64,000 bases of DNA from an uncultured Candidatus Saccharibacteria bacterium. GTDB taxonomy: Bacteria > Patescibacteriota > Minisyncoccia > UBA9983. The stretch lies in contig CAYJQX010000001.1 in assembly GCA_964372755.1 (NCBI GenBank), forward strand, positions 6,563 through 70,562, written 5' to 3'. Below the pieces are notes generated by a model that was not told where the DNA came from, did no database searches, and worked only from the letters and a program-made list of their open reading frames with translations. Shown piece by piece: positions 3,282-63,766 of this stretch (the stretch's first letter is position 1; every line of letters begins with the position of its first letter). The position numbers and the translations under genes were made by a program.

Positions 3282-3680
3282 ATGGCATACTCAATAAAGG
3301 AGGAAAGAAAAAGCTGGGCGCCTGTTATCAGAGCCGGCAACACCGTAAAGGTGTGGCAAAAAATCAAGGAAGGCGATAAATTCCGCCTTCAGGCTTTTGA
3401 AGGACTGGTAATCGCCCATAAACATGGCACTGAAGCCGGAGCGACTTTTACCGTGAGAAAAGTGTCAGAAGGTATTGGCATTGAAAGAATTTTTCCTCTT
3501 TATTCTCCGAATGTGGAAAAAATCGATCTTGTAAAAAGCTCTCAAGTGCGTCGCGCCAAACTTTACTATGTTCGCGAAAAAGCCGCTAAAGAGATAAAAA
3601 AGAAAATGCGTCGCTTAAACACTCTTCCCAAAAAAGAGGCGGTAATGGAGGATGTCATCGAAACTTTTAAAGAAGAATAA
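3282..3680 (+). CDS. rplS: 50S ribosomal protein L19
   Basis: MAYSIKEERKSWAPVIRAGNTVKVWQKIKEGDKFRLQAFEGLVIAHKHG...RAKLYYVR matches the L19 signature. The internal ATG at 3282 was chosen over the upstream GTG of the track ORF. Confidence 0.85.
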   Translation: MAYSIKEERKSWAPVIRAGNTVKVWQKIKEGDKFRLQAFEGLVIAHKHGTEAGATFTVRKVSEGIGIERIFPLYSPNVEKIDLVKSSQVRRAKLYYVREKAAKEIKKKMRRLNTLPKKEAVMEDVIETFKEE

Positions 3681-3733
3681 TCTTTTTTACTATAATCCTC
3701 AGGATTTGTTATTTTAAATAATTAATTAAAATT

Positions 3734-3816
3734 GCGCGGGTGCTGTAACGGTAGCCAGGCTGGCTTGAGGTGCCAGTGTCCGCAAGGACGTGGAGGTTCA
3801 AGTCCTCTCCCGCGCA
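3734..3816 (+). tRNA. tRNA-Leu (anticodon GAG), type II with long variable arm
   Basis: GCGCGGG TG CTG TAACGGTAGC CAG G CTGGC TTGAGGT GCCAG TGTCCGCAAGGACGT GGAGG TTCAAGT CCTCT CCCGCGC A. It has a 3-bp D stem, anticodon loop TTGAGGT and a variable-arm hairpin GTCC/GGAC. CCA is not encoded. Confidence 0.85.
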
Positions 3817-3967
3817 TAGTGAGCGAAGCGAACAAAGCGCGGAGCGAGCCAACTGCTTGGCTCGCGAGAGAGGGCTTGAATGCCGGAGTCATATCAAGTC
3901 AGCAGACGAGATGGCGAGGCGGGGGCGAGAAAATTTGTGAGTGACTGACGAACAAATTATTCGTGCC

Positions 3968-3995
3968 CAAGTCCTGATGTCTCTCCCGCGCACCA
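3968..3995 (+). repeat. direct degenerate copy of the tRNA-Leu 3' end (CAAGTCCT..TCTCCCGCGCA + CCA)
   Basis: CAAGTCCTgatgtCTCTCCCGCGCACCA matches the tRNA-Leu 3' region CAAGTCCTCTCCCGCGCA apart from a 5-nt insertion. The intervening 3817-3967 is GC-rich with the hairpin GAGCGAGCC aactgctt GGCTCGCGAG. Confidence 0.5.
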
Positions 3996-23945: not shown

Positions 23946-26224
23946 GAAGAAAAATTTTAAAATCCGACATTTTTGTTTTTACCGGTTTTTTTGTCCTGAT
24001 TTTATTTTTCTTTTACGGGCCGTTTTCGGCGCATACCACTTACGCAGCATTTGAATTTATTGATATTGGGGCAGGGGTTTTAAAAAAATTAGTTGCCGGC
24101 ATCGGCGGAATAGTCATCCATATCGCCTCTTGGTTTTTAGCCCTTTCGGGATGGATTTTTGATTACACGATACAATTTTCCATTCTTAATTATTTCGGCG
24201 AGGGCGGATTTGTAGAAAAAGGGTGGACGACGGTGAGAGATCTCTCCAATGTGGTTTTTATATTCATTCTTTTGTACGCGGCTTTCATGACTGTCTTGGG
24301 GATGGGCGGAGTGGATATTAAAAAAGTGGTGGCCAATGTGGTCTTGATTGCCCTACTGGTTAATTTCAGTTTGGTTATCACAAAGGTGGTCATAGACGCC
24401 AACAACATCTTGGCGGTGGAGTTTTACAACAAACTTAACAACATTGAGGATGCCAGCAACCCCGGAAAAAAACTCACTCTTTCTGAAGGAATATCAAATG
24501 CTCTAAGCCCGCAGAATTTTTTTAAGCAACCAGAAGACAATTCTTCGTTTTGGGGAGAAATATTTTCCCGCGGGGCAGAAGCTGACGAGGAATCAACCCT
24601 GATGCAGATAGCCATAAGCACCATTTTTGGCTCAATATTCATTTTGGCTCTGGCTTTCGTGCTTTTGGCCGGAGGGCTAATGTTTATTCTCCGCACCGCC
24701 GCTCTGTGGCTTGTTATGATTCTCTCTCCCGCCGCTTTTGTTTGCTACGCTGTTCCGGGAGCGGAAAAATTTTTCACCAAATGGAAAGGGCATTTGATCA
24801 ACCACGCCCTTTTTGCGCCGGCCTATATGTTTTATCTCTATGTGGTCGTCAAAATTGTTTCCGAGTCCAATCTTCTCTCTTCAACGGGCAGGGAAAACGT
24901 TCATTTGAGTGCGGACGCCAAAGACCTGGACACGGCCTCCATGGGTCTGATTTTCAAATACCTAATCGTTCTTTTTCTCCTCACAATGGCTTTAAAACTC
25001 GCGAGTGATATGGGCGCTTATGGCGCTTCGGCGGCCAATAAATATTTTGATAAAGGCAAGGGTTGGCTGACCGGTAAGGCGAAAAGAATCAGTCAAAAAG
25101 TTCCCGGAGGCGCCTCTAGAGTTTTGTTGAGCAACCAAAAAACAAGACAAGCTCTGCAGAGTTTTGCGGCCAGCAGTCCGAGGGTCGGGGGGGCTATTTC
25201 AAGAACAGTTCGCTCTGGCGCCAAGCTCGGCTTAAACGAAGAGCTTATCAAAGCGAGAGCAGAGACAGCGAAATCCCTGACACCGGAACAGCAAGCAAAA
25301 TATTTCGCAAAGCTTGGCAGAGTGCCTTTTGCCGGCCGTTTGCAAGGGGCAAGTTCTAATGTTCCAGGCCTTAAGCAAGCGGCTTTTGTCCTAAGTCCTG
25401 TTGCAGCAATTATGAATTTTCTTGGCGGGGATAACCAGTCTCAAAAGAGAATGCTTGAAGAAATGTCCTCAAGCCAGAGAAGAAAATTTGTTGCTGAAGC
25501 TGACAAGGATACTGGCGCCAGAGCGCTCGTTAATAAATATTTGTTGGAGAAAGAAATCTTGGACAAACTCTCTTCAGAGGAGAAAATGGAATTTTATGCC
25601 AGAGGAGAAAATGATCCCACTATTGCCAAGGATCCGAGCAATGTAGAGTTCAGAAAAGGAATGGAAAAGAAAATTCTTGAAAACACGGAAGAATTCCAGA
25701 AACTTTCTATCCGTGACAGGGTGGAATTTGGAAAAATGATCGATAAAATGGGTGGAGATGTTGCTTTATTCAATAAGGCTGTCGATAAAATGTCAAAAGA
25801 AGACAAAGAGAATTATACTAAAACAAAAAACGAGGTTGGCAGGAAGGAAAAAATCGGAGATTTTCTTCTTAAGACAGATCCCATTTCTGGTAATCCCATT
25901 TCTGTGCCGGATCTTTCGGATAAAAGCGTCTTGGGTCGTTTCAACAACATAAAACCGGATGAGATTCAAACTTTAAGAGACGATCTGTTTACAGACAGCA
26001 ACGTTGATTACATGTTGGATAATCTTAGAACCGAACATTTCAATAAAATCATGGCTCGTGGCGATGAATCTTCCGATAAATTTATTGAAAGAGTTATCGC
26101 TAAAGCCCCCGGAGCCAAAAGTCCGGATGATGTCAGCAAGGCTTGGAAAACAATTTCTCCGTCTGTATCCGCTTGGGCTATCAGTCCGGCCGGACGATAT
26201 GCGCTAGAATCAAGATTGCCATAA
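23942..26224 (+). CDS. polytopic membrane protein, VirB6/TrbL-like candidate
   Basis: ATG overlaps the upstream TGA (translational coupling). At least six hydrophobic helices in the N-terminal 400 aa, then a long hydrophilic C-terminal domain, which is the VirB6-type architecture. Confidence 0.45.
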   Translation: MRRKILKSDIFVFTGFFVLILFFFYGPFSAHTTYAAFEFIDIGAGVLKKLVAGIGGIVIHIASWFLALSGWIFDYTIQFSILNYFGEGGFVEKGWTTVRDLSNVVFIFILLYAAFMTVLGMGGVDIKKVVANVVLIALLVNFSLVITKVVIDANNILAVEFYNKLNNIEDASNPGKKLTLSEGISNALSPQNFFKQPEDNSSFWGEIFSRGAEADEESTLMQIAISTIFGSIFILALAFVLLAGGLMFILRTAALWLVMILSPAAFVCYAVPGAEKFFTKWKGHLINHALFAPAYMFYLYVVVKIVSESNLLSSTGRENVHLSADAKDLDTASMGLIFKYLIVLFLLTMALKLASDMGAYGASAANKYFDKGKGWLTGKAKRISQKVPGGASRVLLSNQKTRQALQSFAASSPRVGGAISRTVRSGAKLGLNEELIKARAETAKSLTPEQQAKYFAKLGRVPFAGRLQGASSNVPGLKQAAFVLSPVAAIMNFLGGDNQSQKRMLEEMSSSQRRKFVAEADKDTGARALVNKYLLEKEILDKLSSEEKMEFYARGENDPTIAKDPSNVEFRKGMEKKILENTEEFQKLSIRDRVEFGKMIDKMGGDVALFNKAVDKMSKEDKENYTKTKNEVGRKEKIGDFLLKTDPISGNPISVPDLSDKSVLGRFNNIKPDEIQTLRDDLFTDSNVDYMLDNLRTEHFNKIMARGDESSDKFIERVIAKAPGAKSPDDVSKAWKTISPSVSAWAISPAGRYALESRLP

Positions 26225-26254
26225 TAATATAGTAGAGAATAATTATTTTTAAAG

Positions 26255-27010
26255 ATGAAAAAACATTCTTTTGAAGACATAAAAAAAGCTTACGCTTCTT
26301 TGCCGGAAGATTTGATTGAAGCGGGGTCTTCTGTTCAAACCACAGAAGCTTTAAGGGACATAGGCAAAAAATATGGGCTGATGATGGATCAGGCCGGGGA
26401 AATGGCGAGCGAAGCCGGTTCCGTCATCCTCGGCCTTACGCCTGTCCAGGAATTTGTTCCCAATCTTCAGGAAAGACTTGGAGTTTCTAAAGACATTGCC
26501 ACAAAGATAGCGGAAGACATCAGCGCTCAAGTTTTTTCCAAAGTAAGGGAGTCGATGAAAAAGATTCATTCAACTCACGGCGGAGATCAAGCTCTTTTAG
26601 AGGTGAAAGAAAATGCTCCCGCGGAAAAAAAGGATGATGTGCTAAAACATTTGGATGAAGACGCGGAAATAGAAAAGGATTTGAAAACAATGGTTGTTTC
26701 CAAAAACACGGAAGAAGAAAAAAAGAGATTTCCTGTGAGTGATTTAATTAATGCTTCTTTAGGTCTGGAGAGCAGGGAAAGAGAAGAATCTTTTCCCATA
26801 AACGACCTTATTAATGCATCCCTTCCTCCAGAGAATTTGCCGATCAATGGCTCTTCGAATTTACCACGACAGGAAAAAACTTCATCTACGCCTGTCCCTA
26901 AACCTCCGGTAAAACCAGCCGTTCCTCAAATAACCAGAATGCCGAAAGAAGAAAAAACACTGAATGTTCCCCTAAAGACAAAAGATCCCTACAGAGAACC
27001 AATAAGTTAG
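26255..27010 (+). CDS. hypothetical protein with tandem FP(V/I)SDLINASL repeats
   Basis: RFPVSDLINASLGLESREREESFPINDLINASLPPE. Pro-rich C-terminus. Confidence 0.4.
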   Translation: MKKHSFEDIKKAYASLPEDLIEAGSSVQTTEALRDIGKKYGLMMDQAGEMASEAGSVILGLTPVQEFVPNLQERLGVSKDIATKIAEDISAQVFSKVRESMKKIHSTHGGDQALLEVKENAPAEKKDDVLKHLDEDAEIEKDLKTMVVSKNTEEEKKRFPVSDLINASLGLESREREESFPINDLINASLPPENLPINGSSNLPRQEKTSSTPVPKPPVKPAVPQITRMPKEEKTLNVPLKTKDPYREPIS

Positions 27011-27034
27011 AAATAACAACTAAATCTAAAAGCG

Positions 27035-27466
27035 ATGAAATTTCAAGTTCCGCAATTCATAGAAGTTGAGACAAAAATATTCGGGCCGCTGACTTTGAAG
27101 CAGTTTTTGTATTTAGCCGGAGGCGCCGGCGCTTCTATCGTGCTCTACAGTTTGCTCCCTTTCTTTTTGATGATTATTTTCGCTGCGCCGATTGTCGCCC
27201 TCGCCCTCGCCCTCGCTTTTTACAAGCTAAATAATCAGCCTTTTGTGAGGGTGCTTGAAAATGCCATTAAGTTTTATCTGTCAGGCAGGCTTTTTTTGTG
27301 GAAGAAGACGCCAAATGAGGACAATAAATCAGTTTCTGTTGATAAAGAAGGAATATTGAAAACTGCGGGAATACAAACAAGCGGAACAACAGGTTATGTG
27401 CCGAAATTAACGCAAAGCAAATTAAAAGATTTATCCTGGAGTTTGGATATTAATAAAGAAACATAA
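27035..27466 (+). CDS. PrgI-family (VirB3-like) small membrane protein of Gram-positive-type T4SS
   Basis: MKFQVPQFIEVETKIFGPLTLKQFLYLAGGAGASIVLYSL matches the PrgI family N-terminal consensus (K.P.D.E...IFG.LT.RQF.YL) followed by a TM hairpin. Confidence 0.6.
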   Translation: MKFQVPQFIEVETKIFGPLTLKQFLYLAGGAGASIVLYSLLPFFLMIIFAAPIVALALALAFYKLNNQPFVRVLENAIKFYLSGRLFLWKKTPNEDNKSVSVDKEGILKTAGIQTSGTTGYVPKLTQSKLKDLSWSLDINKET

Positions 27467-27468
27467 CT

Positions 27469-27602
27469 CGACTCCAATACGCGAATTGACTCGAATGACA
27501 CTAATAGTATTAAAGCCTAACTTCTTTCATCCGCGTCATTCGTGCGCATTATTCCCTCCTTTGCTAGGAAGCTACGGGCGGGCAAGCGTGTATTAGCGTC
27601 GG
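27469..27602 (+). repeat. MITE-like repeat copy 2 (with an internal insertion of about 35 nt)
   Basis: CGACTCCAATACGCGAATTGACTCGAATGACACTAATAGTATTAAAGCCTAACTTCTTTCATCCGCGTCATTCGTGCGCATTATTC ... CGTGTATTAGCGTCGG is collinear with copy 1 at 7163-7262. Confidence 0.55.
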
Positions 27603-27608
27603 GTAAAA

Positions 27609-27624
27609 TGTTATAATTAAATCG
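27609..27624 (+). promoter_or_regulatory. extended -10 TGTTATAAT positioned 7 nt before the ATG (leaderless-type promoter)
   Basis: TGTTATAAT taaatcg ATG. The same layout recurs at many genes in this window. Confidence 0.45.
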
Positions 27625-28284
27625 ATGGCTATAAGTTCACAAGCAACACAAGTATTTGTTCCCATAAAAGAAATTCGTGAAGGAGTGGTTATTTTAAAAG
27701 ACGAATCGTTCAGAATGATTTTAATGTGCTCCACTCTGAATTTTGCTCTTAAATCTGAAGACGAGCAGAGCGCCATTGTCATGCAATATCAAAATTTTTT
27801 AAACTCCCTTGATTTTTCGGTGCAATTTTTTATCCAGTCGAGAAAATTAAACATTAATCCATACCTTACTACCCTTGAAGAGGCAAGAGTTCAACAGCCG
27901 AACGAGCTTTTGAAAATCCAAACAAAAGAATACATAGATTTTATTAGAAATTTTGTTACAACGACCAATATAGTGGAGAAAACTTTTTATGTGGTTGTGC
28001 CTTATGCTTCCTCCATTGCCATGCCCACAAAATCTTCGAACCCCATAAGCGGAATTCTTTCTATTTTTTCTCGGAACAAAGATAATCTGGGGCAGGCTGA
28101 GGCAATGCGTTTTGCCGAAGCAAGACTGCAAATTCAGCAAAGAGCAGACGTGGTTTCTCAAGGCTTGGCTGGAGCCGGCATTCGTTCCAAACAGCTTGGA
28201 ACGGAGGAGTTGATCGAGCTCTATTACAAACTTTTCAATCCGGGCGAGCTGGAAAAAGAATCTCTTAAAAGCATAAAATCATAA
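27625..28284 (+). CDS. virB4: VirB4/TrbE/CagE-family T4SS ATPase, N-terminal domain fragment
   Basis: VFVPIKEIREGVVILKDESFRMILMCSTLNFALKSEDEQSAIVMQYQNFLNSLDFSVQFFIQSRKLNINPYL matches the conserved VirB4 N-terminal domain. It ends with TAA one nt before the next ATG. Confidence 0.65.
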   Translation: MAISSQATQVFVPIKEIREGVVILKDESFRMILMCSTLNFALKSEDEQSAIVMQYQNFLNSLDFSVQFFIQSRKLNINPYLTTLEEARVQQPNELLKIQTKEYIDFIRNFVTTTNIVEKTFYVVVPYASSIAMPTKSSNPISGILSIFSRNKDNLGQAEAMRFAEARLQIQQRADVVSQGLAGAGIRSKQLGTEELIELYYKLFNPGELEKESLKSIKS

Positions 28285-28285
28285 C

Positions 28286-30154
28286 ATGAGCATATTAGAT
28301 TCCTTAAAAAATAATTCTGTCACCCCAGCTCCTCAGACGCCGCAACCTTCTTTGCAAAATCCTTCTGTGGCAAGCGGAGAAATATTGCCGGTCATACCTC
28401 AAAATATTTATGAATATGGCGTTTTAAAATTGCAGGACGTTATTGCTCCGTCGGCCCTGGAAGTAGCTTCAAACCACATAAAAATCGGCGAGAAGGTAGC
28501 AAGGGTGATTTTTGCCATGTCTTATCCGAGATTTTTATCATCGGATTGGTTTTCTCCGATAGTTAATCTCGATAAAGTTTTTGATGTTTCTATTTTTGTT
28601 CATCCGATAGATACCGCTTCAGTTTTGCATCAAATGCAGAGAAGGGTGGCGGAAGTGCAATCTCAAATTAACGAGAGAGAATCCAAAGGATTGGTGCGCG
28701 ACCCGATGCTCGATACCGCTTATCAAGATCTGGAGAATTTACGCGATGACCTCCAACAGGCCACTGAAAAATTATTTAATCTAGGGCTTTATGTTACGGT
28801 TTATGCCGACTCACTGGACGAATTGGATAAAATAGAAACGGAAGTGCGCCAGATTATGGAATCCAAGCTTATTTATGTAAAACCGGCTCTTTTCCAACAG
28901 CTTGACGGGCTCTACACGGTCTTTCCTTTTGAGACGGATAAATTGGACATTCATAATCAGATGAATTCGTCTCCTCTCTCTTCTCTTTTTCCTTTTGTCT
29001 CTTTTGATCTTTCTTCCGACAGAGGAATTCTTTATGGAGTAAACAGACACAATAACGGCCTTGTTCTTTTTGATCGATATTCTCTGGAAAATTACAACTC
29101 GGTAGTTTTTGCCAAGTCTGGTTCGGGAAAATCTTACGCGACCAAATTGGAAATTTTGCGTACCCTTATGTTTGATACGGACGTGATCGTGATAGATCCG
29201 GAGAGGGAATATGAATATCTGGCGGAATCGGTAGACGGACAATATTTCAGCATCTCTCTTTCATCCAAACATCATATTAATCCTTTTGATCTGCCTCCTG
29301 TGGGCGAAGGAGAATCCCCCTCGGATGTTTTGAGAAGCAACATCATTTCCCTCGTGGGACTCTTTCGTTTGATGTTGGGCGGTCTTACGCCGGAGGAAGA
29401 CTCTGTTATTGACAGAGCGATTACCGAAACTTACGCTTCTCGCGATATCACGCCGGACACGGATTTTTCTACTCTTCCTCCACCGACTTTGTCGGACTTA
29501 GAAATTATTTTAGCCAGTATGGAGGGAGCGGAGTCTTTGGCCCAGCGCTTGGCCAAGTTTACTCGCGGGACTTGGGCCGGCTTTATCAACCAGCCGACCA
29601 ATGTTGACGTGAACCGAAAGTTTGTCGTTTTTTCCGTTCGCGACATGGAAGACGAGCTTCGTCCGATCGCGATGTATATAGTTATGCACTATATCTGGAA
29701 CATGGTCAGGAAAAATATCAGGAAAAGACTTTTGGTGGTGGATGAGGCTTGGTGGATGATGAAATCCGAAGACACGGCTTCTTTTCTTTTTGGCATCGCC
29801 AAACGAGGCAGAAAATATTTTTTGGGATTGCTCACTATCACTCAAAACGTGGAAGACTTTTTAAGTTCTCCTTACGGAGTGCCAATCATAACAAACTCTT
29901 CTATGCAGTTGCTGTTGAAGCAATCGCCTGCTTCCATAGAGATAGTGAAAAAGACTTTCAATCTTACAGAGGAGGAGAAATTTCTGCTTTTGGAATCAGA
30001 CGTGGGGGAGGGTATCTTTTTTGCGGGAGCCAAACATGTGGCCATAAAAGTCATTGCTTCATATACAGAAGATCAGATTATTACTTCCGATCCGGCCCAG
30101 CTTTTGGCCATAAAAAAAGCGCGAGAGGAAATTGGCAACCCCGTTACCGCTTGA
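28286..30154 (+). CDS. virB4: VirB4/TrbE/CagE-family T4SS ATPase, central and C-terminal ATPase domain
   Basis: Walker A VVFAKSGSGKSYAT and Walker B RLLVVDEAWWMM. The LTITQNVEDF motif is typical of VirB4. Confidence 0.75.
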   Translation: MSILDSLKNNSVTPAPQTPQPSLQNPSVASGEILPVIPQNIYEYGVLKLQDVIAPSALEVASNHIKIGEKVARVIFAMSYPRFLSSDWFSPIVNLDKVFDVSIFVHPIDTASVLHQMQRRVAEVQSQINERESKGLVRDPMLDTAYQDLENLRDDLQQATEKLFNLGLYVTVYADSLDELDKIETEVRQIMESKLIYVKPALFQQLDGLYTVFPFETDKLDIHNQMNSSPLSSLFPFVSFDLSSDRGILYGVNRHNNGLVLFDRYSLENYNSVVFAKSGSGKSYATKLEILRTLMFDTDVIVIDPEREYEYLAESVDGQYFSISLSSKHHINPFDLPPVGEGESPSDVLRSNIISLVGLFRLMLGGLTPEEDSVIDRAITETYASRDITPDTDFSTLPPPTLSDLEIILASMEGAESLAQRLAKFTRGTWAGFINQPTNVDVNRKFVVFSVRDMEDELRPIAMYIVMHYIWNMVRKNIRKRLLVVDEAWWMMKSEDTASFLFGIAKRGRKYFLGLLTITQNVEDFLSSPYGVPIITNSSMQLLLKQSPASIEIVKKTFNLTEEEKFLLLESDVGEGIFFAGAKHVAIKVIASYTEDQIITSDPAQLLAIKKAREEIGNPVTA

Positions 30155-30198
30155 TTGAGATAAGGGATTAGAGGATTTGTTTTAAGTTTTTTAAAAAA

Positions 30199-30744
30199 AT
30201 GGCCGTTACACGTTATTCAGAAGAAGAGTTGCTGGAGGAAGAGAGGCGAACCACCTTGGAGAAAGCTCGTATGGAGGAAGATTCAGAAGAAGAGTCAGAG
30301 GAAGAAGAAACCTCTCGCCCTATGTATTCAGACAGAGAAGAAGAAAATGAAGAAAAAAAAGAGCCGAGAATTTCTACTTTCACGGCAATCCTGATGCTTG
30401 TTTTTGTTTCAACCGTAGAACTTGCGCAGTTCGGCCTTACCTTTCTTGTTGTGGGAGTCGTGGTGAGCCCGATAATCGCTTTCTGCGCGCAAATGATTGT
30501 GACTTTTTGGTTTTGGATGAAAGGCGTCAGCTTCAGGAGCGCTAAAAAAATTATCACAATCGGGGTTTCCATGCTCATAGAATTTATTCCCGGTTTGGAT
30601 GTCTTGCCAGGATTCTTGCTTCAAGTTATTGCTATTATATTAATGACAAAAGCCGAAGATGGCGCGCTGGGTAAAATTGCCTCGACAGTGCCAGGCGGAA
30701 AAAAATTAACGGAAGCCGTCGAGAAGACCTTGAAGAAAGCTTAA
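30199..30744 (+). CDS. small membrane protein with highly acidic N-terminal region (possible pilin/VirB2-like subunit, speculative)
   Basis: EEELLEEERR...DSEEESEEEETS is followed by two or three TM helices (AILMLVFVSTVELAQFGLTFLVVGVVVSPIIAF, ITIGVSMLIEFIPGLDVLPGFLLQVIAIILM). Confidence 0.4.
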   Translation: MAVTRYSEEELLEEERRTTLEKARMEEDSEEESEEEETSRPMYSDREEENEEKKEPRISTFTAILMLVFVSTVELAQFGLTFLVVGVVVSPIIAFCAQMIVTFWFWMKGVSFRSAKKIITIGVSMLIEFIPGLDVLPGFLLQVIAIILMTKAEDGALGKIASTVPGGKKLTEAVEKTLKKA

Positions 30745-30747
30745 AAA

Positions 30748-31731
30748 ATGAAGAAAAATTTTTATCTGATACTAACATTGATAATTATCTTTACGGCGAC
30801 CTTTTTAGCGCCAAGATTTTTTGTTTTAGCCTTCGGAGATGATTTATCTCTTTCAGTTTTTCCGGAAAATCCCGAGGCCGGAGAGGAAATAAAAATCACC
30901 GCTTCAGGTTTTACTTTCAATGTAGATGATTCCGATTTTATTTGGGCGATAAACGGCAAGGTGGCGCTCAAGGGACGCGGAGAAAAGTCTTTGACTTTCA
31001 CAAATGGCGAAGCTGGCAAGGTAACGGAAGTCGTTGTAACGGTAATAGGAGAAAACGGGGAAAGTGTGGTAAGGAAAATCTCCTTTGCTCCGCAAGATCT
31101 GGATATTTTATGGGAAGCCGAAACCTACACTCCTCCTTTTTACAGGGGGAAAGCTCTGCCGAGCTCTGAAGCCTATATCACCTTTTTTGCCCTGCCACAT
31201 TTTTTTGTGAGCGGAAAAAAACTCGCGCCAACGGAACTTACTTACACTTGGAAAATCAACAACAAAATTCTAAGCGATTTTTCAGGGCTGGGGAAAACCA
31301 GTATCCGCATAAAAGGCCCGGAACTTTTTTCCAAGATGGAGGTGGAAGTTGCCGTTTCAAACAGGACCGGCTCCACATCGCAAAATAAAAAATTGACCAT
31401 AGAACCTATTTTTCCGGAACTTATTTTTTATCGCGAGGATGCTCTGGAGGGGACAAATTATGCCAAAGTTTTGGAAAATCCGGCTAAATTTGGCGAAGGA
31501 GAAGTTGGGGTAAGGGTCGAGCCGTATTTCTTTTCTCTTTCAGAGATTAATTTTCTTGATTACGCGTGGAGAGTGAACGGATTTTTATCAAAGCAATACG
31601 AGAAATCCAGAGTGGTTGTTTTCAGAAACAGAGAAGGCCAGGAGAAGGGGCGAGTAAGTGTCTCCCTTGAAGTGCAGAATCAAAAAAATGTGGGGCAAAT
31701 TAGTAAAGCCAGCGCCATGTTAGAATTTTAG
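30748..31731 (+). CDS. secreted hypothetical protein
   Basis: Signal peptide MKKNFYLILTLIIIFTATFLAPRFFVLA. Beta-rich. Confidence 0.4.
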   Translation: MKKNFYLILTLIIIFTATFLAPRFFVLAFGDDLSLSVFPENPEAGEEIKITASGFTFNVDDSDFIWAINGKVALKGRGEKSLTFTNGEAGKVTEVVVTVIGENGESVVRKISFAPQDLDILWEAETYTPPFYRGKALPSSEAYITFFALPHFFVSGKKLAPTELTYTWKINNKILSDFSGLGKTSIRIKGPELFSKMEVEVAVSNRTGSTSQNKKLTIEPIFPELIFYREDALEGTNYAKVLENPAKFGEGEVGVRVEPYFFSLSEINFLDYAWRVNGFLSKQYEKSRVVVFRNREGQEKGRVSVSLEVQNQKNVGQISKASAMLEF

Positions 31732-31734
31732 AAT

Positions 31735-32754
31735 ATGAAAAAGATAGCGTATATTTTTCTTTTTATTTTTATATTTTTTCCGACAGCTTTGTTGGCTGTG
31801 GATTTTATAGATCCGAATTCATCCAATCCTTGCGGGGGAGGCGGTATAACGGAAGATATCCAGAGAGGCAACGAATTCAGGCCGTGTCTTTTGGCTCCTT
31901 TGCCGACAGGGGCGGCCAATGAAGCAAGCCCCACCTTCACCGAGTATCTTACTTTTGTTTACAGGTTTTTGATTGCTGGGACGGCTTTGGTTGCCACCGG
32001 CCAGATAGTTTACGCGGGAATTTTGCGTATTTGGGGCGGAGTGAGCCAGTCAAGTATCACCAAATCAAGAGAGATCATAGAACGATCTCTCTGGGGTCTT
32101 GGCCTTGCTCTATCTTCTTACTTAATTCTCTACACCATCAATCCCAGTCTGGCGGAGATTAAACTGGAAATTCCGCCGATAGTATGGAAGGTGCAGAAGT
32201 TTGAGCCGGTTGAAAAGGGTCCCACCCAAGGTTCTGTTCTAAGTGGCGAAAATATTTCCTCTTCAGAGGAGGCAACAAGAAAATATATACTCAGTAAAGG
32301 TGTAACTATTGTGAGTTCTGGAAATAATTCTGGTGTTGTGGATGCCTGTCCTGATGGGGAAAAATTCTTTGATTATAAAGAAAGAACAGGCAGGAGTTGT
32401 ACCTCAGTAAGAGGTTTAGCTACAAGTACCATAGACAAGATTGGTAATTTAAAAAAGGATTGTAATTGCTCCGTTGCTATTAGTGGAGGGACTGAAGAAG
32501 GACATCAAACTCATGGCCCGAATCATCCAAGTACCTTAGATCTGGAAAAGGGTTTGAATTTTGATAATTTAGAAAAATATATTAAGGAAAATTCTAGTGC
32601 TATTTGCACCAAAAAAATCAAGAAAAAAATAAAACAAGAAGATGGAACAGAGAAGGAAGTAGAAGTGGAAATTAAATCATACGTAACAGATGGTATTAAG
32701 TTTACGGATGAAGATAACCACTGGCACGTGCTGGTCGGAGGTAGATGTTATTAA
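31735..32754 (+). CDS. secreted/membrane hypothetical protein with Cys-rich C-terminal domain
   Basis: Signal peptide plus two hydrophobic helices (FLIAGTALVATGQIVYAGIL, LGLALSSYLILYTI), reminiscent of VirB2/TrbC pilin topology. The C-terminal domain has 8 Cys. Confidence 0.4.
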   Translation: MKKIAYIFLFIFIFFPTALLAVDFIDPNSSNPCGGGGITEDIQRGNEFRPCLLAPLPTGAANEASPTFTEYLTFVYRFLIAGTALVATGQIVYAGILRIWGGVSQSSITKSREIIERSLWGLGLALSSYLILYTINPSLAEIKLEIPPIVWKVQKFEPVEKGPTQGSVLSGENISSSEEATRKYILSKGVTIVSSGNNSGVVDACPDGEKFFDYKERTGRSCTSVRGLATSTIDKIGNLKKDCNCSVAISGGTEEGHQTHGPNHPSTLDLEKGLNFDNLEKYIKENSSAICTKKIKKKIKQEDGTEKEVEVEIKSYVTDGIKFTDEDNHWHVLVGGRCY

Positions 32755-32757
32755 TTT

Positions 32758-34002
32758 ATGTCAAAAAGAAAAATTATCATTTTAGTCCTGGCTGTAATTT
32801 TGATCGGTTTTTCCGCTTATTCCTATTTCTTTTTTGAAAAAAAAGATCTCAACAATAATACTGGAAATGATAACAGAGAGGGAACCTTAGAAAACCTTTT
32901 TCCTTCTTCTGGAGATGCGGAAAATGAAAAACAAAACGAGGGTGGAGTTTCTAGAGAAGAAAGTCAGCTTCCACAAGAAGGTTCAGAAAATAGAGAGGAA
33001 ATATTTGGTCAGGAGATAGAGGCGCCAAAGCAATTAACTATCAATCCAATCTCTGGTTATACCATTGTTTCCACAACTTCGGTCCGTTATGTAGAGACTT
33101 CAACGGGTCATATTTATGAAGTTGATTTTTCCGGAGAAAACTACAATAGATTATCTAATACTACTATTCTAAAAACAGAAGAGTCTTATTGGTCGCCCAA
33201 AGGAGACAAGGTTATCATTAGATATTTAAACGGCGTAAATGACTCTATGATTTTAAAAAATTATTCAGCTGTTTTGCCAAAATCGGCCTCTTCCACCGAG
33301 CTTACGGGATCATTCTTTAATGACTTTAAGGAAATAGCAGTTTCTTCTTCGGAGGAAAGTGTCGCTCTTCTCCAAAAAAATAGCGCAAAATACGATTTAA
33401 TTTTAACTAGCTTTGAGAATACCAAAAGAAAACTTCTTGCCAGTTTCCCCATAGGCCAGTTCAATATCTCTTGGGCCGGTAAAAATACTTTGTCTCTTTT
33501 AACAAAACCAACGAGGGGAATACAAGGAATCTTTTATGGGCTAGACATTAAAACAGGCTCACTAAGAAAAATAGTAGAAGGAAATTCCGGTTTGACGGCC
33601 AAACTTTCGCCGCTCAACAACTTTGTTTTTTATTCAGAAACTGACAAAACCGGAAAAGTCATAGGATATTTTTATGATGTTAAGAAAAACCAAAGACTTA
33701 TCCTTGGCACCAACACTTTTGCGGATAAATGTATCTGGAGCAACAAAACAGAGGGAATTATTTATTGCGCGGTTCCAAAGGAATATTCTTCCGGTGTTTA
33801 TCCGGATGATTGGTATAAAGGAGTAAAGAGTACGGAAGACAAACTATGGCTAGTAGATGCGCAAACAGGAGAGGTTCAAATTTTAAGTGAAAATATGGGC
33901 GGAAATATTGATGCCGTGGATTTGAAATTTACCTCTGACGAGAGTTATTTTTTCTACACAAACAAAAAAGATGGCACTCTATGGACGGTGAAAATAAGAT
34001 AA
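32758..34002 (+). CDS. membrane-anchored hypothetical protein, beta-propeller-like
   Basis: N-terminal TM anchor. Repeated Trp/Tyr-containing beta strands, TolB/WD40-like. Confidence 0.4.
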   Translation: MSKRKIIILVLAVILIGFSAYSYFFFEKKDLNNNTGNDNREGTLENLFPSSGDAENEKQNEGGVSREESQLPQEGSENREEIFGQEIEAPKQLTINPISGYTIVSTTSVRYVETSTGHIYEVDFSGENYNRLSNTTILKTEESYWSPKGDKVIIRYLNGVNDSMILKNYSAVLPKSASSTELTGSFFNDFKEIAVSSSEESVALLQKNSAKYDLILTSFENTKRKLLASFPIGQFNISWAGKNTLSLLTKPTRGIQGIFYGLDIKTGSLRKIVEGNSGLTAKLSPLNNFVFYSETDKTGKVIGYFYDVKKNQRLILGTNTFADKCIWSNKTEGIIYCAVPKEYSSGVYPDDWYKGVKSTEDKLWLVDAQTGEVQILSENMGGNIDAVDLKFTSDESYFFYTNKKDGTLWTVKIR

Positions 34003-58579: not shown

Positions 58580-58607
58580 ACCCAACCGTAACGGTTGGGT
58601 ATTTTTG
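58580..58607 (+). terminator. rho-independent terminator
   Basis: ACCCAACCG taa CGGTTGGGT ATTTTTG. Confidence 0.7.
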
Positions 58608-58699
58608 AGTTGAGTGCCCCGAGGTTTTGTCGAGGGGCAGTATTCGACGAGTCGAGCGGGCTGTTTACCATGAAGTATCCGAGGGGATATAATTTATCT

Positions 58700-58966
58700 A
58701 TGTATTTTGTTTATATGATTATGAATTCTAGTAGAGATCTTTATGTCGGAGTTACTAAAAATCCAAATGAAAGAGTAAATTTTCATAACAAAAAACAAGG
58801 AGCGAATTTTACTAAAAATAGACTAGAATTCAAGATAGTTTTTCTTGAAGAGTATAAAAGTTTTAAAGAAGCAAGGCAAAGAGAAATCCAAATTAAAAAA
58901 TGGCGAAGAGACAAGAAAGAACGTTTAATAAGTCTTTACAAACAAGGATTAAACACAAAGAAATAA
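58700..58966 (+). CDS. small GIY-YIG nuclease-superfamily protein (YhbQ/UPF0213-like)
   Basis: MYFVYMIMNSSRDLYVGVTKNPNERVNFHN matches the GIY-x10-YIG...R...H...N pattern. TATAAT lies 6 nt before the ATG. Confidence 0.6.
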   Translation: MYFVYMIMNSSRDLYVGVTKNPNERVNFHNKKQGANFTKNRLEFKIVFLEEYKSFKEARQREIQIKKWRRDKKERLISLYKQGLNTKK

Positions 58967-59855: not shown

Positions 59856-61718
59856 ATGGAAAGCTTAAAATCCTTTTCCCGCCATATTGTGGCCGCCCTT
59901 TTGATTCTGATGATTATGGCCGGTTTGTATTCCATAATTGTCGGACGCGAAGCCAAAAAACCGGAGACTCTGACTCTTTCGGAGGTTGTTGGCGCTATCA
60001 AAGGAGGCAATATCAAAAATATAGAAATCAAAGGAAATGATTTAAAAATTGTTTTTGGTGATGACTCTGTAAAGGAAGCAAAGAAAGAAAGCGATGCGTC
60101 TTTGACTGATACTCTCGCCAACTACGGACTTTCTAAAGAGGAAATTTCCAAAGTGGGAATTTCCATAAAAGAACCCTCAGGTTTTCTTTTCTGGATTGGA
60201 AATATCTTGCCCTTTCTTGCTCCCATTATAATTATCCTTGTTTTTTTCTGGCTGGCTTCAAGGCAGGTCAAGGGGGCAAGCGGACAAGCTTTTTCTTTCG
60301 GGCAATCAAGAGCGAGGATTGCTCTGCCGGATGATCAAAAACCAAAAACTACTTTCAAAGATGTGGCGGGCGTGAAAGAAGCCAAAGAGGAACTTCTGGA
60401 AATCGTGGATTTTTTGAGAAGTCCGGAAAAATTTCTTTCAATCGGAGCAAAAATTCCCAAAGGCGTATTGTTGATGGGCGCGCCGGGGACAGGAAAAACT
60501 CTTTTGGCCCGCGCGGTAGCGGGCGAAGCAGAAGTGCCGTTTTTTCATATTTCCGGTTCGGAATTCGTGGAAATGTTTGTGGGGGTGGGCGCTTCTCGCG
60601 TGCGTGATCTGTTTAAGATGGCTAAACGCGCCGCTCCTGCCATAATTTTTATAGACGAGATAGACGCGGTGGGAAGACACAGGGGTTCTGGTATGGGAGG
60701 GGGACATGACGAAAGAGAGCAGACCCTAAATCAGATATTGGTGGAAATGGATGGATTTGAGCCGACGGAAAAGGTGATTGTAATGGCAGGGACAAACAGG
60801 CCGGATGTGTTGGATCCTGCTCTTCTTCGGCCGGGCAGGTTTGACAGAAGAGTAATTTTGGATTTGCCGGATATAAAAGAAAGAGAAGAGATATTGCAGA
60901 TTCATTCAGTCGGGAAACCGCTTGCGAAAGATATTGTTTTAAGAGTCATTGCCGAGCGCACTCCGGGGTTTTCCGGCGCTGATCTCATGAACTTAATGAA
61001 CGAAGCGGCAATTTTAACCGCTCGGCAAAACAGGAAAGAAGTGGAGCAAGATGATCTTATTCGTTCTATCGAAAAAGTAATGCTGGGGCCGGAGAGAAAA
61101 AGCCGGTTACTGACCGCGAAAGAAAAAAAGATTACCGCTTATCATGAAGCCGGGCACGCTCTCGTCTCTTCTGTTTTGCCCCACGCCGATCCGGTGCATA
61201 AAGTCTCAGTTGTCTCAAGAGGGAGAGCTGCCGGCTACACGCTAAAACTTCCTCTTGAAGAGAAACATCTTCATTCAAGAGCCCATTTTCTGGACGATTT
61301 GGCGGTTTCTATGGGCGGTTTTGTGGCGGAGAAATTAATTTTCGGAGATATGACTACGGGAGCTTCAAACGATATTCGCGTTTCGTCTGATTTAGCGCGT
61401 GCGGTAGTCACAAAATACGGCATGTCGGAAAAAATCGGGCCAGTCGCTTATGGTGAGGACGAGCCGGCTCTTTTTCTGGGAAAAGATTTTGGGCATGGTA
61501 AAAACTACTCCGAAGAAACAGCCAAAGAAATTGATGCCGAGGTGACCAAACTGATGAAAGACGCCGAAAGGCGGGCGCGGGATGTCATCACCAAACACAA
61601 AGACGCGCTGGAAGCCATTACAAAAACTCTGATGGAAAAAGAAACGATCGAACAGGCGGATTACGAAAAAATAATATCCTCTTTTGGAATTACGCCTAAG
61701 AGAGTAGAGATAGTATAG
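59856..61718 (+). CDS. ftsH: ATP-dependent zinc metalloprotease FtsH
   Basis: Walker A GAPGTGKT, the SRH, the zinc motif HEAGHAL, and an N-terminal TM pair. Confidence 0.9.
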
Positions 61719-61791: not shown

Positions 61792-62457
61792 ATGGCAAGA
61801 AAAGAAGATAAAATAAAAGCAATAAGTCTCCGGCTTAAAGGCCAAAGTTACAGCCAAATAAAATCTAAAATTAAAATAAGTAAAAGCACCTTGAGCAATT
61901 GGCTTCAAGATTATCCGCTTTCAGAAAAGAGAATAAGAGAACTTCGCGATTTAAATCCCCAAAGAATAGAGAGGTATAGGGCAACTAGAGCTTTGCAGAA
62001 AAAAACTCGCTTGGATGAGATTTATGCAAAAGAGAAGAAAGCGCTTCTGCCTTTTTCAAAACGAGACCTTTTTATCGCAGGTCTTTTCCTGTATTGGGGA
62101 GAGGGAGGGAAAACCGCCAATGCACAGTTGACTTTAACAAATACAAAACCAAGTATTATCAAGTTTTTTATTTTTTGGGCGGACAAAGTTTTAAAAATAA
62201 ATAAAAAAGATATTGTATTTCGTCTGCATATTTTTAAGGATATGAGTCCCGAGAAAGAGATATTTGCTTGGTCTAAAGAGTTAAAAGTTTCTAAAAATCA
62301 GTTTAGGAAATGTTTTGTAAAGAAAACTTTAAGTTCTAGCGTGACATACAAAAGAAGCTTTAGGCATGGGACATGTGACGCGATAATCAGGGGTGCTCGA
62401 TTAGCAGAAAAAGTTTTAATGTCACTTAAAGCGATTGAAGATAGTTTCCGAAATTGA
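61792..62457 (+). CDS. HTH + LAGLIDADG-like endonuclease family protein (paralog of 1866-2540)
   Basis: HTH QSYSQIKSKIKISKSTLSNWLQD. LAGLIDADG-like block FIAGLFLYWGEGGKTAN. The stop lies 18 nt before the tRNA at 62476. Confidence 0.5.
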   Translation: MARKEDKIKAISLRLKGQSYSQIKSKIKISKSTLSNWLQDYPLSEKRIRELRDLNPQRIERYRATRALQKKTRLDEIYAKEKKALLPFSKRDLFIAGLFLYWGEGGKTANAQLTLTNTKPSIIKFFIFWADKVLKINKKDIVFRLHIFKDMSPEKEIFAWSKELKVSKNQFRKCFVKKTLSSSVTYKRSFRHGTCDAIIRGARLAEKVLMSLKAIEDSFRN

Positions 62458-62475
62458 TATAGTCAGCAAATAAGC

Positions 62476-62547
62476 GCGTCCGTAGCTCAATGGTAGAGCA
62501 GTCGTCTTATACACGACTGGCTGGGGGTTCGAGTCCCTCCGGACGCA
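62476..62547 (+). tRNA. tRNA with anticodon TAT (UAU; would decode AUA = Ile); CCA not encoded
   Basis: GCGTCCG TA GCTC AATGGTA GAGC A GTCGT CTTATAC ACGAC TGGCT GGGGG TTCGAGT CCCTC CGGACGC A. The cloverleaf is regular. Anticodon stem GTCGT/ACGAC is perfect and the loop CTTATAC puts TAT at positions 34-36. Confidence 0.65.
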
Positions 62548-62563
62548 TAGCAAGTCTTCAGGC

Positions 62564-62585
62564 ATGCGTCTGGAGGGACTCGAAC
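62564..62585 (+). repeat. inverted copy of the tRNA 3' end, forming a 22-bp hairpin with the tRNA T-arm/acceptor 3' strand
   Basis: ATGCGTCTGGAGGGACTCGAAC is the reverse complement of the tRNA 3' end GTTCGAGTCCCTCCGGACGCAT (62528-62549). One G-U position. A 14-nt spacer separates them. Confidence 0.6.
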
Positions 62586-62716
62586 AGGAAAGGGGTCGGG
62601 CGATTTTTAAGCGTAAAAATCGGTTCAAAATCTGCTAATTTTAAACTTCCTTATTCTTCTATTTTTCCCGTGGAGGAAAAATACGAAACCGTGGGTTTAG
62701 TAGGAGCGAAGCGACG

Positions 62717-62739
62717 TTTGATTCCCTCCGGACTCATAT
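62717..62739 (+). repeat. direct degenerate copy of the tRNA(UAU) 3' end
   Basis: GTTTGATTCCCTCCGGACTCATA versus tRNA GTTCGAGTCCCTCCGGACGCATA gives 20 of 23 identical, about 170 nt downstream of the tRNA. Confidence 0.5.
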
Positions 62740-62805
62740 AATATTCTCTCCCTGCCCTTGACTTCACAACACCAGATATGATAGAAATTTTACTGGAAAT
62801 ACCAA

Positions 62806-62878
62806 AGCGGGTTCGTTCAAACGGTCCAGGACGCCTTTCTCCCCGGAAGGAAATAGGGTTCAAATCCCTACCCGCTTT
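62806..62878 (+). other. tRNA-like element / possible pseudo-tRNA (T arm and acceptor fold; D arm does not)
   Basis: AGCGGGT ... TAGGG TTCAAAT CCCTA CCCGCTT T. The acceptor (7 bp) and T arm are good. A candidate anticodon arm CCTTT CTCCCCG GAAGG exists, but no D arm could be folded. Followed by the terminator at 62881-62920. Confidence 0.3.
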
Positions 62879-62880
62879 TA

Positions 62881-62920
62881 CCCACAATCATTTTTTATAA
62901 TTGTGGGTTTTTTATTTTTT
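62881..62920 (+). terminator. rho-independent terminator
   Basis: CCCACAAT cattttttat AATTGTGGG TTTTTTATTTTTT. Confidence 0.7.
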
Positions 62921-62941: not shown

Positions 62942-63766
62942 ATGGTAAATAAGGAGGTTTTAAATTATATCAGCGGGGAAATGGACAAAGGAACGTCGCG
63001 CGAAGCGATAGAAAAAAATCTTTTAAGCAATGGCTGGGACGCCAATGATTTAAAAGAAGCTTTTGCTTTAGTTTCTAGCGTCAATTCTTCATCTTCTTCT
63101 CCTGTCAACGCAAATAAAATTTCTGACATGAAGGAGGGAGTTTTAAAAACTGAACAGACCTTTCCCTCCGTGAAAACAATGCCAAATGAGGCAACCGACA
63201 ATAACTCTATAAATCCTGTTGCTAATTCTCCGTCTCCTAACCTTTCAAATAAAATTCCCGAAACTAAGCCTCTTTCTGGCTTTACGACGATGCAGAGCCA
63301 GCTTAGCCAATCGCCCTCGCCTCAAATGAATTCAGGAGAGACTAATTTATCGCAAAACTTTGCTAGTGTCAAAACCGTGACTCGCGAAACAAAAACAAGC
63401 GGTTTTATGGGATATGTTTGGACAGCTTTAATTTTCGTTTTAATTGGTCTGGGAGGAGGATTTTATATCTCAAATAAATTTTTTGGAATATCTGAACCGG
63501 TGGAGGAATACACCTCCTCAACACCACAGCCTGTTCTGCCCCCAACAAAAGATGTATCCGAAGATCCGGTATCAAATGAGATAGCAACCAGCACGAATGA
63601 TATTATATGTATTCAAGTGGTCACGAAAGCCAGAGATCCAAAGACGAAGATCGTAAAAGAATTTGGAACTCCTTGCGATGTTCCTGAAGGATGGGAGATA
63701 ATCTCTGCAACCAGTACGGATGTTTCTCCTTTGTCTAATTCAACATCTTCTGTTCCTAAAAGATAA
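62942..63766 (+). CDS. single-pass membrane protein, Ser/Pro-rich, unknown function
   Basis: TCGTATAAT lies 9 nt before the ATG. One TM helix (FMGYVWTALIFVLIGLGGGFYI) and low-complexity S/P/N-rich segments. Confidence 0.4.
   Translation: MVNKEVLNYISGEMDKGTSREAIEKNLLSNGWDANDLKEAFALVSSVNSSSSSPVNANKISDMKEGVLKTEQTFPSVKTMPNEATDNNSINPVANSPSPNLSNKIPETKPLSGFTTMQSQLSQSPSPQMNSGETNLSQNFASVKTVTRETKTSGFMGYVWTALIFVLIGLGGGFYISNKFFGISEPVEEYTSSTPQPVLPPTKDVSEDPVSNEIATSTNDIICIQVVTKARDPKTKIVKEFGTPCDVPEGWEIISATSTDVSPLSNSTSSVPKR

Follow-up and report, generated by a model that had tools for sequence, protein, structure and literature searches.

The window analysed here, a 64-kb stretch of DNA from a genome of the Patescibacteria (Candidate Phyla Radiation, CPR), contains a tRNA-Ile(UAU) gene that is followed by an inverted and a direct copy of its own 3' end. 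The copies belong to one non-coding unit of about 190 nucleotides (nt) at 62548-62738, in which the tRNA 3' end (X) is succeeded by a 15-nt spacer, an inverted copy (X'), a payload of 130 nt and a direct copy of X. The locus is arranged in the order FtsH (59856-61718), a 221-amino acid (aa) helix-turn-helix (HTH) protein (61792-62457), tRNA-Ile(UAU) (62476-62547) and 394 nt of non-coding sequence, after which come a 274-aa open reading frame (ORF) and the end of RecG on the minus strand. This FtsH-(HTH)-tRNA-Ile(UAU)-RecG(-) synteny is kept in most of about 95 related loci, drawn from contigs of relatives and denoted here by L-numbers. The best public matches to the window FtsH come from Parcubacteria/Paceibacteria-type genomes and are only about 70% identical. 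The host gene and the parts of the unit are as follows:

62476..62547, plus strand: tRNA-Ile(UAU), host gene of the element, without encoded CCA (ARAGORN; Rfam tRNA model, 73.5 bits)
62527..62548, plus strand: arm X1, left copy of the proposed duplicated target, from tRNA G53 to the discriminator plus 1 nt (repeat search)
62549..62563, plus strand: spacer or loop AGCAAGTCTTCAGGC between X1 and X' (15 nt; 33% identity to relative L004)
62564..62585, plus strand: arm X', inverted copy of X1 (21/22 complementary to X1; 82% to X3)
62586..62715, plus strand: payload, with a hairpin, a conserved right part (62667-62715) and the motif GAGCGAAGCGA (62704-62714)
62601-62622, plus strand: payload hairpin CGATTTTTA-AGCG-TAAAAATCG, AT-rich
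62716..62738, plus strand: arm X3, direct copy of the T-loop-to-3' end segment and right boundary of the proposed insertion (20/23)

The inverted copy is present where the initial annotation placed it, at 62564-62585, but it is not exact: each arm is 22 nt long, and a single difference (T for the expected C) leaves 21 of 22 positions complementary and one G·U pair in plus-strand RNA. A search for the 22-mer with up to three mismatches returned the X1 and X' sites and no others in the 64 kb (0.00 expected from shuffles). The long hairpin that includes the tRNA 3' strand was recovered by folding, at -47.4 kcal/mol (z = -7.6), and within a 115-nt context it is preferred over the cloverleaf (-62.5 vs. 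-30.3 kcal/mol for the tRNA alone). The degenerate 23-nt direct copy is equally real: 62527-62549 and 62716-62738 agree at 20 of 23 positions, from G53 to three bases beyond the discriminator. X' and the first 22 nt of X3 (62716-62737) are 82% complementary to each other, and both cover one and the same stretch of the tRNA, which begins at G53 in the T-loop region and extends one to three bases past the discriminator. Since X' and X3 match the genomic base that follows the tRNA, and not CCA, they would have been copied at the level of DNA or precursor rather than from mature tRNA.

Three other identities for these sequences were tried and dropped. X' as a primer-binding site of retroviral type is incompatible with a complement that covers the genomic base after the discriminator, not CCA, and X' as the remnant of a convergent tRNA gene with the minus strand, on which nothing tRNA-like extends beyond G53. 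A hammerhead or other small ribozyme, prompted by CUGACGAG-like and CGAAAC strings, found no support in Rfam. The insert of the tRNA-Ile element (167 nt) contains neither a credible ORF nor an integrase.

The nearest relative, L004, is a Logan contig with the same locus and the same tRNA, and with an HTH protein 86% identical to that of the window. Its inverted arm, also 22 nt long, is a perfect complement and encloses a wholly different 16-nt loop; its direct copy reads GTTCGATTTCCCTCCGGACGCAT. Identity between window and L004 is 99% in tRNA-Ile, 33% in the spacer, 95% in the inverted arm X', 62% in the left payload (with a 52-nt indel), 90% in the right payload and 87% in the direct copy X3, compared with 50-64% in other non-coding or intergenic segments. 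Against a background of 0.58, arm identity at 21 of 22 positions has a binomial p of about 1e-4 (our calculation, from segment counts). Arms and part of the payload thus exceed the background, which indicates that they are constrained or being homogenized, and are not drifting scars.

Two side observations concern the host gene and the payload. The anticodon of tRNA-Ile is UAU, not CAU with lysidine, and is kept at the syntenic position across many Patescibacteria (about 95 loci). Payload positions 62636-62655 are 90% complementary, over 20 nt, to 62948-62967, where the 274-aa ORF downstream has its Shine-Dalgarno region (AAGGAGG); this payload stretch falls within the 52 nt missing from L004.

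Recurrence at other tRNA and tmRNA genes

Exact patterns from the tRNA 3' half gave 0 matches in genome and metagenome collections, and a looser, clade-specific tRNA pattern gave 93 further loci. Among 75 unique tRNA-Ile(UAU) loci, 10 carry an inverted copy (anti-arm), a payload and a direct copy (copy 3), in canonical or variant form. An ungapped search of the retrieved loci detected no other full 22-nt inverted copy; it missed the family because most members, as read from their sequences, split the anti-arm with a hairpin. The canonical order is tRNA, linker, a copy of the acceptor 5' strand, A, a 9-bp hairpin with a CTGC or CTAC loop (HP1), GT, the complement of the T-stem 3' strand and T-loop, a payload of 55-140 nt, and finally the direct copy from T-loop to 3' end.

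The arms fit the acceptor sequence of each lineage. In L012, L043, L081, and L096 the direct copy is identical to the local tRNA at 17 of 17 positions, while the acceptor stems differ among these loci (ACACGCG, ACGCCCG, CCGCGCG). The anti-arm reads GAGGG where the 5' T-stem strand of the tRNA reads GGGGG, which marks it as an inverted copy of the 3' strand rather than a duplicated 5' half. Each element on its own folds into a structure closed by pairing of anti-arm and copy 3 (-46 to -78 kcal/mol). L096 contains two tandem units that differ at one base.

All tRNAs of the window and of the relatives' sequences were screened for the element. The inverted-copy arrangement raised by the initial annotation proved to be present at other tRNAs as well, behind tRNA-Leu(GAG) in the window and behind tRNA-Ser(GCT) in L067. 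No close relative was found for the tRNA-Leu locus, the parts of which are:

3734..3816, plus strand: tRNA-Leu(GAG), host of the second window element (ARAGORN; 46.2 bits)
3817..3992, plus strand: second, canonical element, with arms matching tRNA-Leu (-74 kcal/mol alone)
3821-3831, plus strand: linker with GAGCGAAGCGA
3837-3842, plus strand: copy of the acceptor 5' strand, GCGCGG
3844-3865, plus strand: HP1, loop CTGC
3868-3880, plus strand: anti-T-arm GAGAGGGCTTGAA, followed by the payload
3968-3992, plus strand: copy 3, CAAGTCCT-gatgt-CTCTCCCGCGCA, the tRNA-Leu 3' end broken by 5 nt

A covariance model of the 5' module of the family (R1) scores the tRNA-Leu element at 46.4 bits (E = 8e-11), a sequence that was itself used in training the model. 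R1 also matched downstream of transfer-messenger RNA (tmRNA) genes in L006/L087, L074, L018, and L033/L060, with E values of 5e-6 to 1e-3, and these matches were then read directly. In these members the arms complement and copy, respectively, the tmRNA segment from T-loop to 3' end, and X1 and X' enclose a GC hairpin with a T run. Overall, elements of about 105-230 nt with the same order of parts occur at no fewer than 16 loci (at least 16) and behind four kinds of host gene. Of the six tRNA-type genes in the window, those for Ile and Leu have an element, and the other four (Val, His, tmRNA, and the Gly-like gene) have none.

HP1 is conserved as a structure. In six members it is paired in 54 of 54 cells, with both sides changed in seven of nine pairs, no one-sided changes and no G·U pairs, a pattern matched by 0 of 500 shuffles. 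HP1 of the window tRNA-Leu element, GCGAGCCAA-CTGC-TTGGCTCGC, and that of the L074 tmRNA element, GCGAGCCGA-CTGC-TCGGCTCGC, are one compensatory pair apart. A hidden Markov model (HMM) of the payload, built from four members outside the window, has a sole match in the 64 kb, which is the tRNA-Leu payload at 3914-3968 (E = 0.005). The internal parts common to unrelated lineages and host genes include HP1 with its CTGC loop, a GAG.CGGGG.CG motif, an AT-rich hairpin and a GTGACC right end.

Occupied sites can be set beside empty ones. The nearest sampled relatives of L081 (L019, L040, L029, L017, and L044) and of L012 (L028, L007, and L016) are without the element, and the distance from the tRNA to the RecG stop is about 10-15 nt in L019, L029, and L044. 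The flank that follows copy 3 in L081, CAAGATTGCTCACTCAAAATG, is homologous to the flank that follows the tRNA in the empty L019, CCAAGAAGTAATTACTCAAAATG, both being the flank with the RecG stop. This homology indicates that copy 3 marks the ancestral end of the tRNA and that the rest is an insertion with a 17-21-nt duplication. At the locus of the window itself the sole close relative, L004, is likewise occupied. The repeats are kept in L004, and in L081 copy 3 coincides with an indel boundary relative to its empty relatives. At none of the tRNA-Ile loci was a kilobase-scale repeat partner or an integrase detected.

Three exact copies of the 11-mer GAGCGAAGCGA lie in the 64 kb (1656-1666, 3821-3831, and 62704-62714), each less than 200 nt downstream of a tRNA gene (Val, Leu, and Ile, respectively). 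All three copies are on the plus strand, though tRNA-Val is on the minus strand; with one mismatch tolerated, 0.95 matches would be expected from shuffles. In L006 and L064, similar strings come after the ends of tRNA or tmRNA genes. The motif includes GCGAAGC, a DNA mini-hairpin of very high stability.

Two tRNA-Ile loci depart from the common arrangement. In L027 (7785-7925), the downstream copy corresponds not to the resident tRNA-Ile but to another tRNA-like sequence, whose 3' half it represents (T-stem CTTGG/CCAAG, acceptor CGGGCGG); a foreign copy would be expected if the element had come from another host gene, or if the resident 3' end had been replaced. L002 (7240-7850; GCA_013152035.1) is a rearranged tRNA-Ile(UAU) locus, in which a 5' tRNA fragment whose D-loop holds a GC-rich hairpin of 38 nt in one or two copies is followed by a GIY-YIG gene, the intact tRNA-Ile, and a second partial copy with the same 38-nt hairpin. 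An exact repeat of 53 nt flanks the GIY-YIG-tRNA block. The hairpin loop, CGCAAGCTTCAGGCG, is found three times there and in no other locus, and resembles the window spacer AGCAAGTCTTCAGGC.

Interpretation of the repeats

We read the repeats at tRNA-Ile as the ends of a miniature, non-autonomous insertion element whose folded arms would mimic its tRNA or tmRNA target, an interpretation in which our confidence is about even. The layout, its repeated occurrence, the covariation of the arms with the host gene, the contrast of empty with occupied sites, the conservation in L004 and the compensatory pairs of HP1 are observed; mobility, a recombinase and a single-stranded intermediate are inferences. 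The segment from T-loop to 3' end is a classical target of tyrosine integrases, and the element would have been inserted into it by site-specific recombination. On a single strand, X and X' would fold back into a duplex that mimics the double-stranded target, as attP(+) of CTXphi mimics dif. Integration of such a folded single-stranded circle would leave the order X, loop, X', cargo, X, and the direct repeats would then permit both precise loss and tandem amplification. In CTXphi, the attP(+) hairpin is a folded single strand that is recombined with dif by the host XerC (PMC3442271). The layout of the elements is the one expected from integration of the CTXphi type, and in this respect matches a known mechanism.

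That the structure operates at the level of DNA is favored by an HP1 composed exclusively of Watson-Crick pairs, by the low proportion of G·U among predicted pairs in intact members (0-2% in L004, L012, L096, and L097) and by the replacement of a tRNA G·U pair with a Watson-Crick pair in the anti-arm. More tentatively, and with some doubt on our part, the elements may form an undescribed class of miniature mobile element that recognizes its integration target by arms folded as a copy of it, the target being the segment from T-loop to 3' end of whichever tRNA or tmRNA gene is occupied. Some 150 nt of non-coding DNA would in this way hijack a recombinase of the host or of a helper, and such a class would imply a means of re-specifying both arms for new host genes.

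Several points weigh against insertion. No recombinase gene lies in or beside any element, and a Pfam scan of 30 further window ORFs, which are part of the ORF set, showed no integrase. Re-specification of both arms for a new host gene is unexplained by any known recombinase system. Gain and loss are inseparable, as loss through the direct repeats gives the same patchy distribution. Similarity among payloads is thin, and pairwise alignments across lineages are mostly not significant. The plus strand folds better than the minus strand in eight of nine elements, and the one position at which the window arms disagree forms a G·U pair in the plus strand; both favor a role as RNA. Finally, the window tRNA-Ile element lacks HP1 (9 bp, CTRC loop), scores just 13-17 bits with R1 and is not matched by the payload HMM, and its membership of the family rests on layout and on similarity judged by eye.

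By eye, the window payload has GGGGTCGGGCG and then the AT-rich hairpin (62601-62622), resembling the canonical CGGGGTCG.G followed by an AAAATTT hairpin. L081, with a contiguous anti-arm and a canonical payload, bridges the two forms. We read the window tRNA-Ile copy as an older, partly decayed relative of the canonical elements.

It is rather unlikely, if still worth serious consideration, that the unit is instead a structured RNA trailer of the tRNA. X' would pair either with the tRNA 3' half, blocking the cloverleaf or its processing, or with X3, freeing the tRNA, and so constitute a switch; or the trailer would be released as a minihelix-like small RNA, or act as an antisense partner or tRNA sponge. 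A scan of the locus found no site resembling an intrinsic terminator between the tRNA and 62880, so the unit in the window is probably co-transcribed as a trailer. The competing states are close in energy, the X1:X' minimum being -101.5 kcal/mol compared with about -90 for tRNA (-30.3) and closed element (-60.2) together. The strand preference and the plus-strand G·U described above also speak for RNA, as do a stem that is kept around a free loop, a right payload 90% conserved in L004 and internal hairpins that covary. What a trailer leaves unexplained is why the arms equal the host sequence at four kinds of gene, and why a tRNA G·U becomes a Watson-Crick pair in the anti-arm; the absence of G·U from all 54 HP1 cells, and its rarity in the intact members, are also unfavorable. 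In the tmRNA-linked members, the GC hairpin and T run between X1 and X' would put most of the element after a terminator. Two hairpins that are perfect in L004 are weakened or broken in the window, and not compensated, and no Rfam family matches the unit. A processing or termination structure, also considered in the initial annotation, is still conceivable, but no T run follows the 22-bp hairpin. Insertion and an RNA role are not mutually exclusive, and a co-transcribed trailer may add an effect at the RNA level to an inserted element.

We consider it improbable that the repeats are ordinary decayed scars, left where an island or prophage bearing an integrase entered the tRNA and was mostly deleted, with attL, attR and a rearranged inverted fragment remaining. 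Simple integration does not produce an inverted copy, and the size of about 105-230 nt and the order of parts recur at 16 or more loci and at four kinds of host gene, with both arms following lineage-specific acceptor sequences. Between the window and L004 the unit is better conserved than the background, and the tRNA-Ile loci have neither a kilobase-scale partner for the repeat nor an integrase. Scars would, on the other hand, account for a direct repeat that extends from T-loop to 3' end and for the three mismatches in window copy 3, as in a decaying remnant. Partial copies of tRNAs at the borders of integrated elements are moreover a well-documented signature, often with a full copy and a partial one (bioRxiv 10.1101/2022.07.05.498093). 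The duplication of attachment (att) sites suggested by the initial annotation survives in one respect: the direct copy, by its T-loop-to-3' extent and by the L081 flank, has the look of a tRNA 3' end that was displaced or duplicated and now forms the far border of an insertion. The description of the copies as serial or decayed does not, as both copies, inverted and direct, are arms of a single unit closed by a stem, conserved in L004 and recurrent.

An accident of replication or repair, in which fold-back or template-switch synthesis at the T-arm hairpin made a palindromic and a direct duplication with filler and no element family exists, is very improbable: template switching perfects quasi-palindromes, X' and X3 span the same tRNA segment and the L012 palindrome CGCGTGT/ACACGCG adjoins the tRNA end without a loop, but internal parts are common to unrelated lineages and different host genes and the unit is conserved in L004.

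Other features of the window

Downstream of the element lies a second tRNA-like sequence with signals of its own. These features and the site upstream of tRNA-Ile are:

62435..62463, plus strand: promoter-like site (TTGAAG, 17 nt, TG-TATAGT) upstream of tRNA-Ile, from a consensus scan; its function is putative
62758..62788, plus strand: TTGAC...TAG(A/T)AAT block, promoter-like, upstream of the tRNA-Gly-like gene (read by eye; alignment with L004)
62806..62877, plus strand: divergent tRNA-Gly(CCC)-like gene or pseudogene, outside the hairpin element (ARAGORN; Rfam tRNA model)
62880..62915, plus strand: intrinsic-terminator-like hairpin and T run (hairpin 62880-62908, -11.6 kcal/mol, z = -4.7)

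The tRNA-like sequence and the terminator-like hairpin after it were both recognized in the initial annotation, which denied the former a foldable D arm. A D arm does pair (GUUC/GGAC) in RNAfold, in ARAGORN, which reports tRNA-Gly(CCC), and in the Rfam tRNA model. With relaxed filters and 62795-62885 searched alone, the Rfam tRNA model (RF00005) gives 36.4 bits (gathering threshold 29); default filters and a 601-nt search missed the sequence, and genuine window tRNAs score 46-74 bits. The anticodon loop, CUCCCCG, has an atypical C at position 37, where a canonical loop (U33, purine 37) has a purine. The region is about 50% identical to L004, in which ARAGORN calls no tRNA. The TTGAC...TAG(A/T)AAT block is kept in L004 and was not called by the promoter scan, its promoter role being presumptive. 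The terminator stem is kept by paired changes: ACCCACAGGAT/ATCCTGTGGGT in L004 corresponds to ACCCACAAT/ATTGTGGGT in the window. The tRNA-Gly(CCC)-like gene, which had been grouped with the repeats, is unrelated to them; it stands apart as a divergent, lineage-specific gene that has a promoter-like block and a terminator to itself.

The 221-aa protein upstream of tRNA-Ile (61792-62457) combines an HTH_23 domain at its N terminus with a LAGLIDADG-like motif (LFLYWGEGG) and is a member of a large family in Patescibacteria (about 1900 homologues), nearly always encoded between FtsH and tRNA-Ile(UAU). A role for it as a homing endonuclease behind the duplications was dropped on account of this wide distribution and of its conserved order with FtsH and the tRNA; further, the gene is found at empty and occupied sites alike and is missing from the occupied L012, L081, and L043.

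Small GIY-YIG nuclease genes recur beside tmRNA and tRNA-Ile genes of the syntenic region, at 58595-58966 in the window, 3547-3786 and 7350-7598 in L002, and 1849-2121 in L005. Elsewhere in the window, an ORF block at 21888-34002 encodes a TraC/VirB4-like protein (27625-28284) and several large ORFs without a Pfam match; it may represent a type IV secretion or conjugation-like cluster, and hence a possible source of single-stranded DNA. Several short metagenome contigs (L005, L099, L101, and L102-L104) terminate inside or just past the tRNA-Ile gene, which could reflect assembly breaks at repeated or palindromic sequence. The extra contigs L099-L104, with ends at or near the tRNA, gave no information on the element.

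Comparison with known systems

The element family appears to be undescribed. Rfam 15 gave no meaningful match for the window elements or for nine loci, only generic hairpins such as mir-3688 (31.6 bits vs. gathering 84). BLAST against phages and plasmids returned no match, two patterns had 0 matches in viral contigs and a limited search of the literature yielded no description of such elements. The genes for tRNA and tmRNA are the main landing sites of mobile DNA, and to our knowledge the elements described at them are kilobase-sized and have their own integrase. A family of about 150 nt with hairpin arms matched to the target would be new, either as a minimal parasite of an integration system or as a new kind of RNA appended to tRNAs. 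Patescibacteria have small genomes and are thought to be poor in mobile elements. The units create false tRNA fragments and may break assemblies at tRNA loci.

With the islands and prophages of tyrosine integrases, the elements share tRNA and tmRNA targets, duplication of the segment from T-loop to just past the 3' end, an insert flanked by the intact gene and a displaced partial copy, and tandem arrays. They differ in being only about 105-230 nt long, non-coding and without an integrase, and in having an additional inverted copy of the target, with both copies equal to the local gene.

Miniature inverted-repeat transposable elements (MITEs) are similarly small, non-coding and non-autonomous, with terminal inverted repeats (here 62564-62585 and 62716-62737, 82%). 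The repeats described here, in contrast, copy the upstream host gene rather than a fixed transposase site, and there is no short target-site duplication. Moreover, the two window elements share no arm sequence, and the 22-mer is confined to the tRNA-Ile locus in the 64 kb.

A different precedent, for RNA, is the 3' external transcribed spacer (3'ETS) of leuZ in Escherichia coli, a functional spacer of a tRNA that serves as a sponge for small RNAs. Like it, the unit is a structured sequence, probably transcribed, just after a tRNA, and could have an RNA role of its own. The 3'ETS sequences, however, are not known to have self-complementarity to the tRNA or a duplicated tRNA end.

The attC sites of integrons also recall the element, being imperfect palindromes that function as a folded single strand, variable in sequence and conserved in structure; here, too, part of the site would be inherited from the target at each insertion. 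An identity with attC was nevertheless dropped, as the R''/R' consensus (RYYYAAC / GTTRRRY) is at odds with the CTCGAAC / GTTCGAG of the window. The element is further without intI, attI, and a cassette ORF, and its repeat measures about 20 nt as opposed to 6-7.

In layout, the counterpart is provided by CTXphi and other integrative mobile elements exploiting Xer recombination (IMEX). The target of the elements described here is the 3' end of a tRNA or tmRNA and not dif, and their cargo is about 100 nt of hairpins and not a phage genome. In both, nonetheless, inverted target-like sites fold into a stem that mimics the target (X1:X' 21/22; X':X3 82%), the predicted order of parts is the same, and the recombinase would have to be provided in trans. 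The units would be a natural case of target mimicry by DNA folding, testable in vitro.

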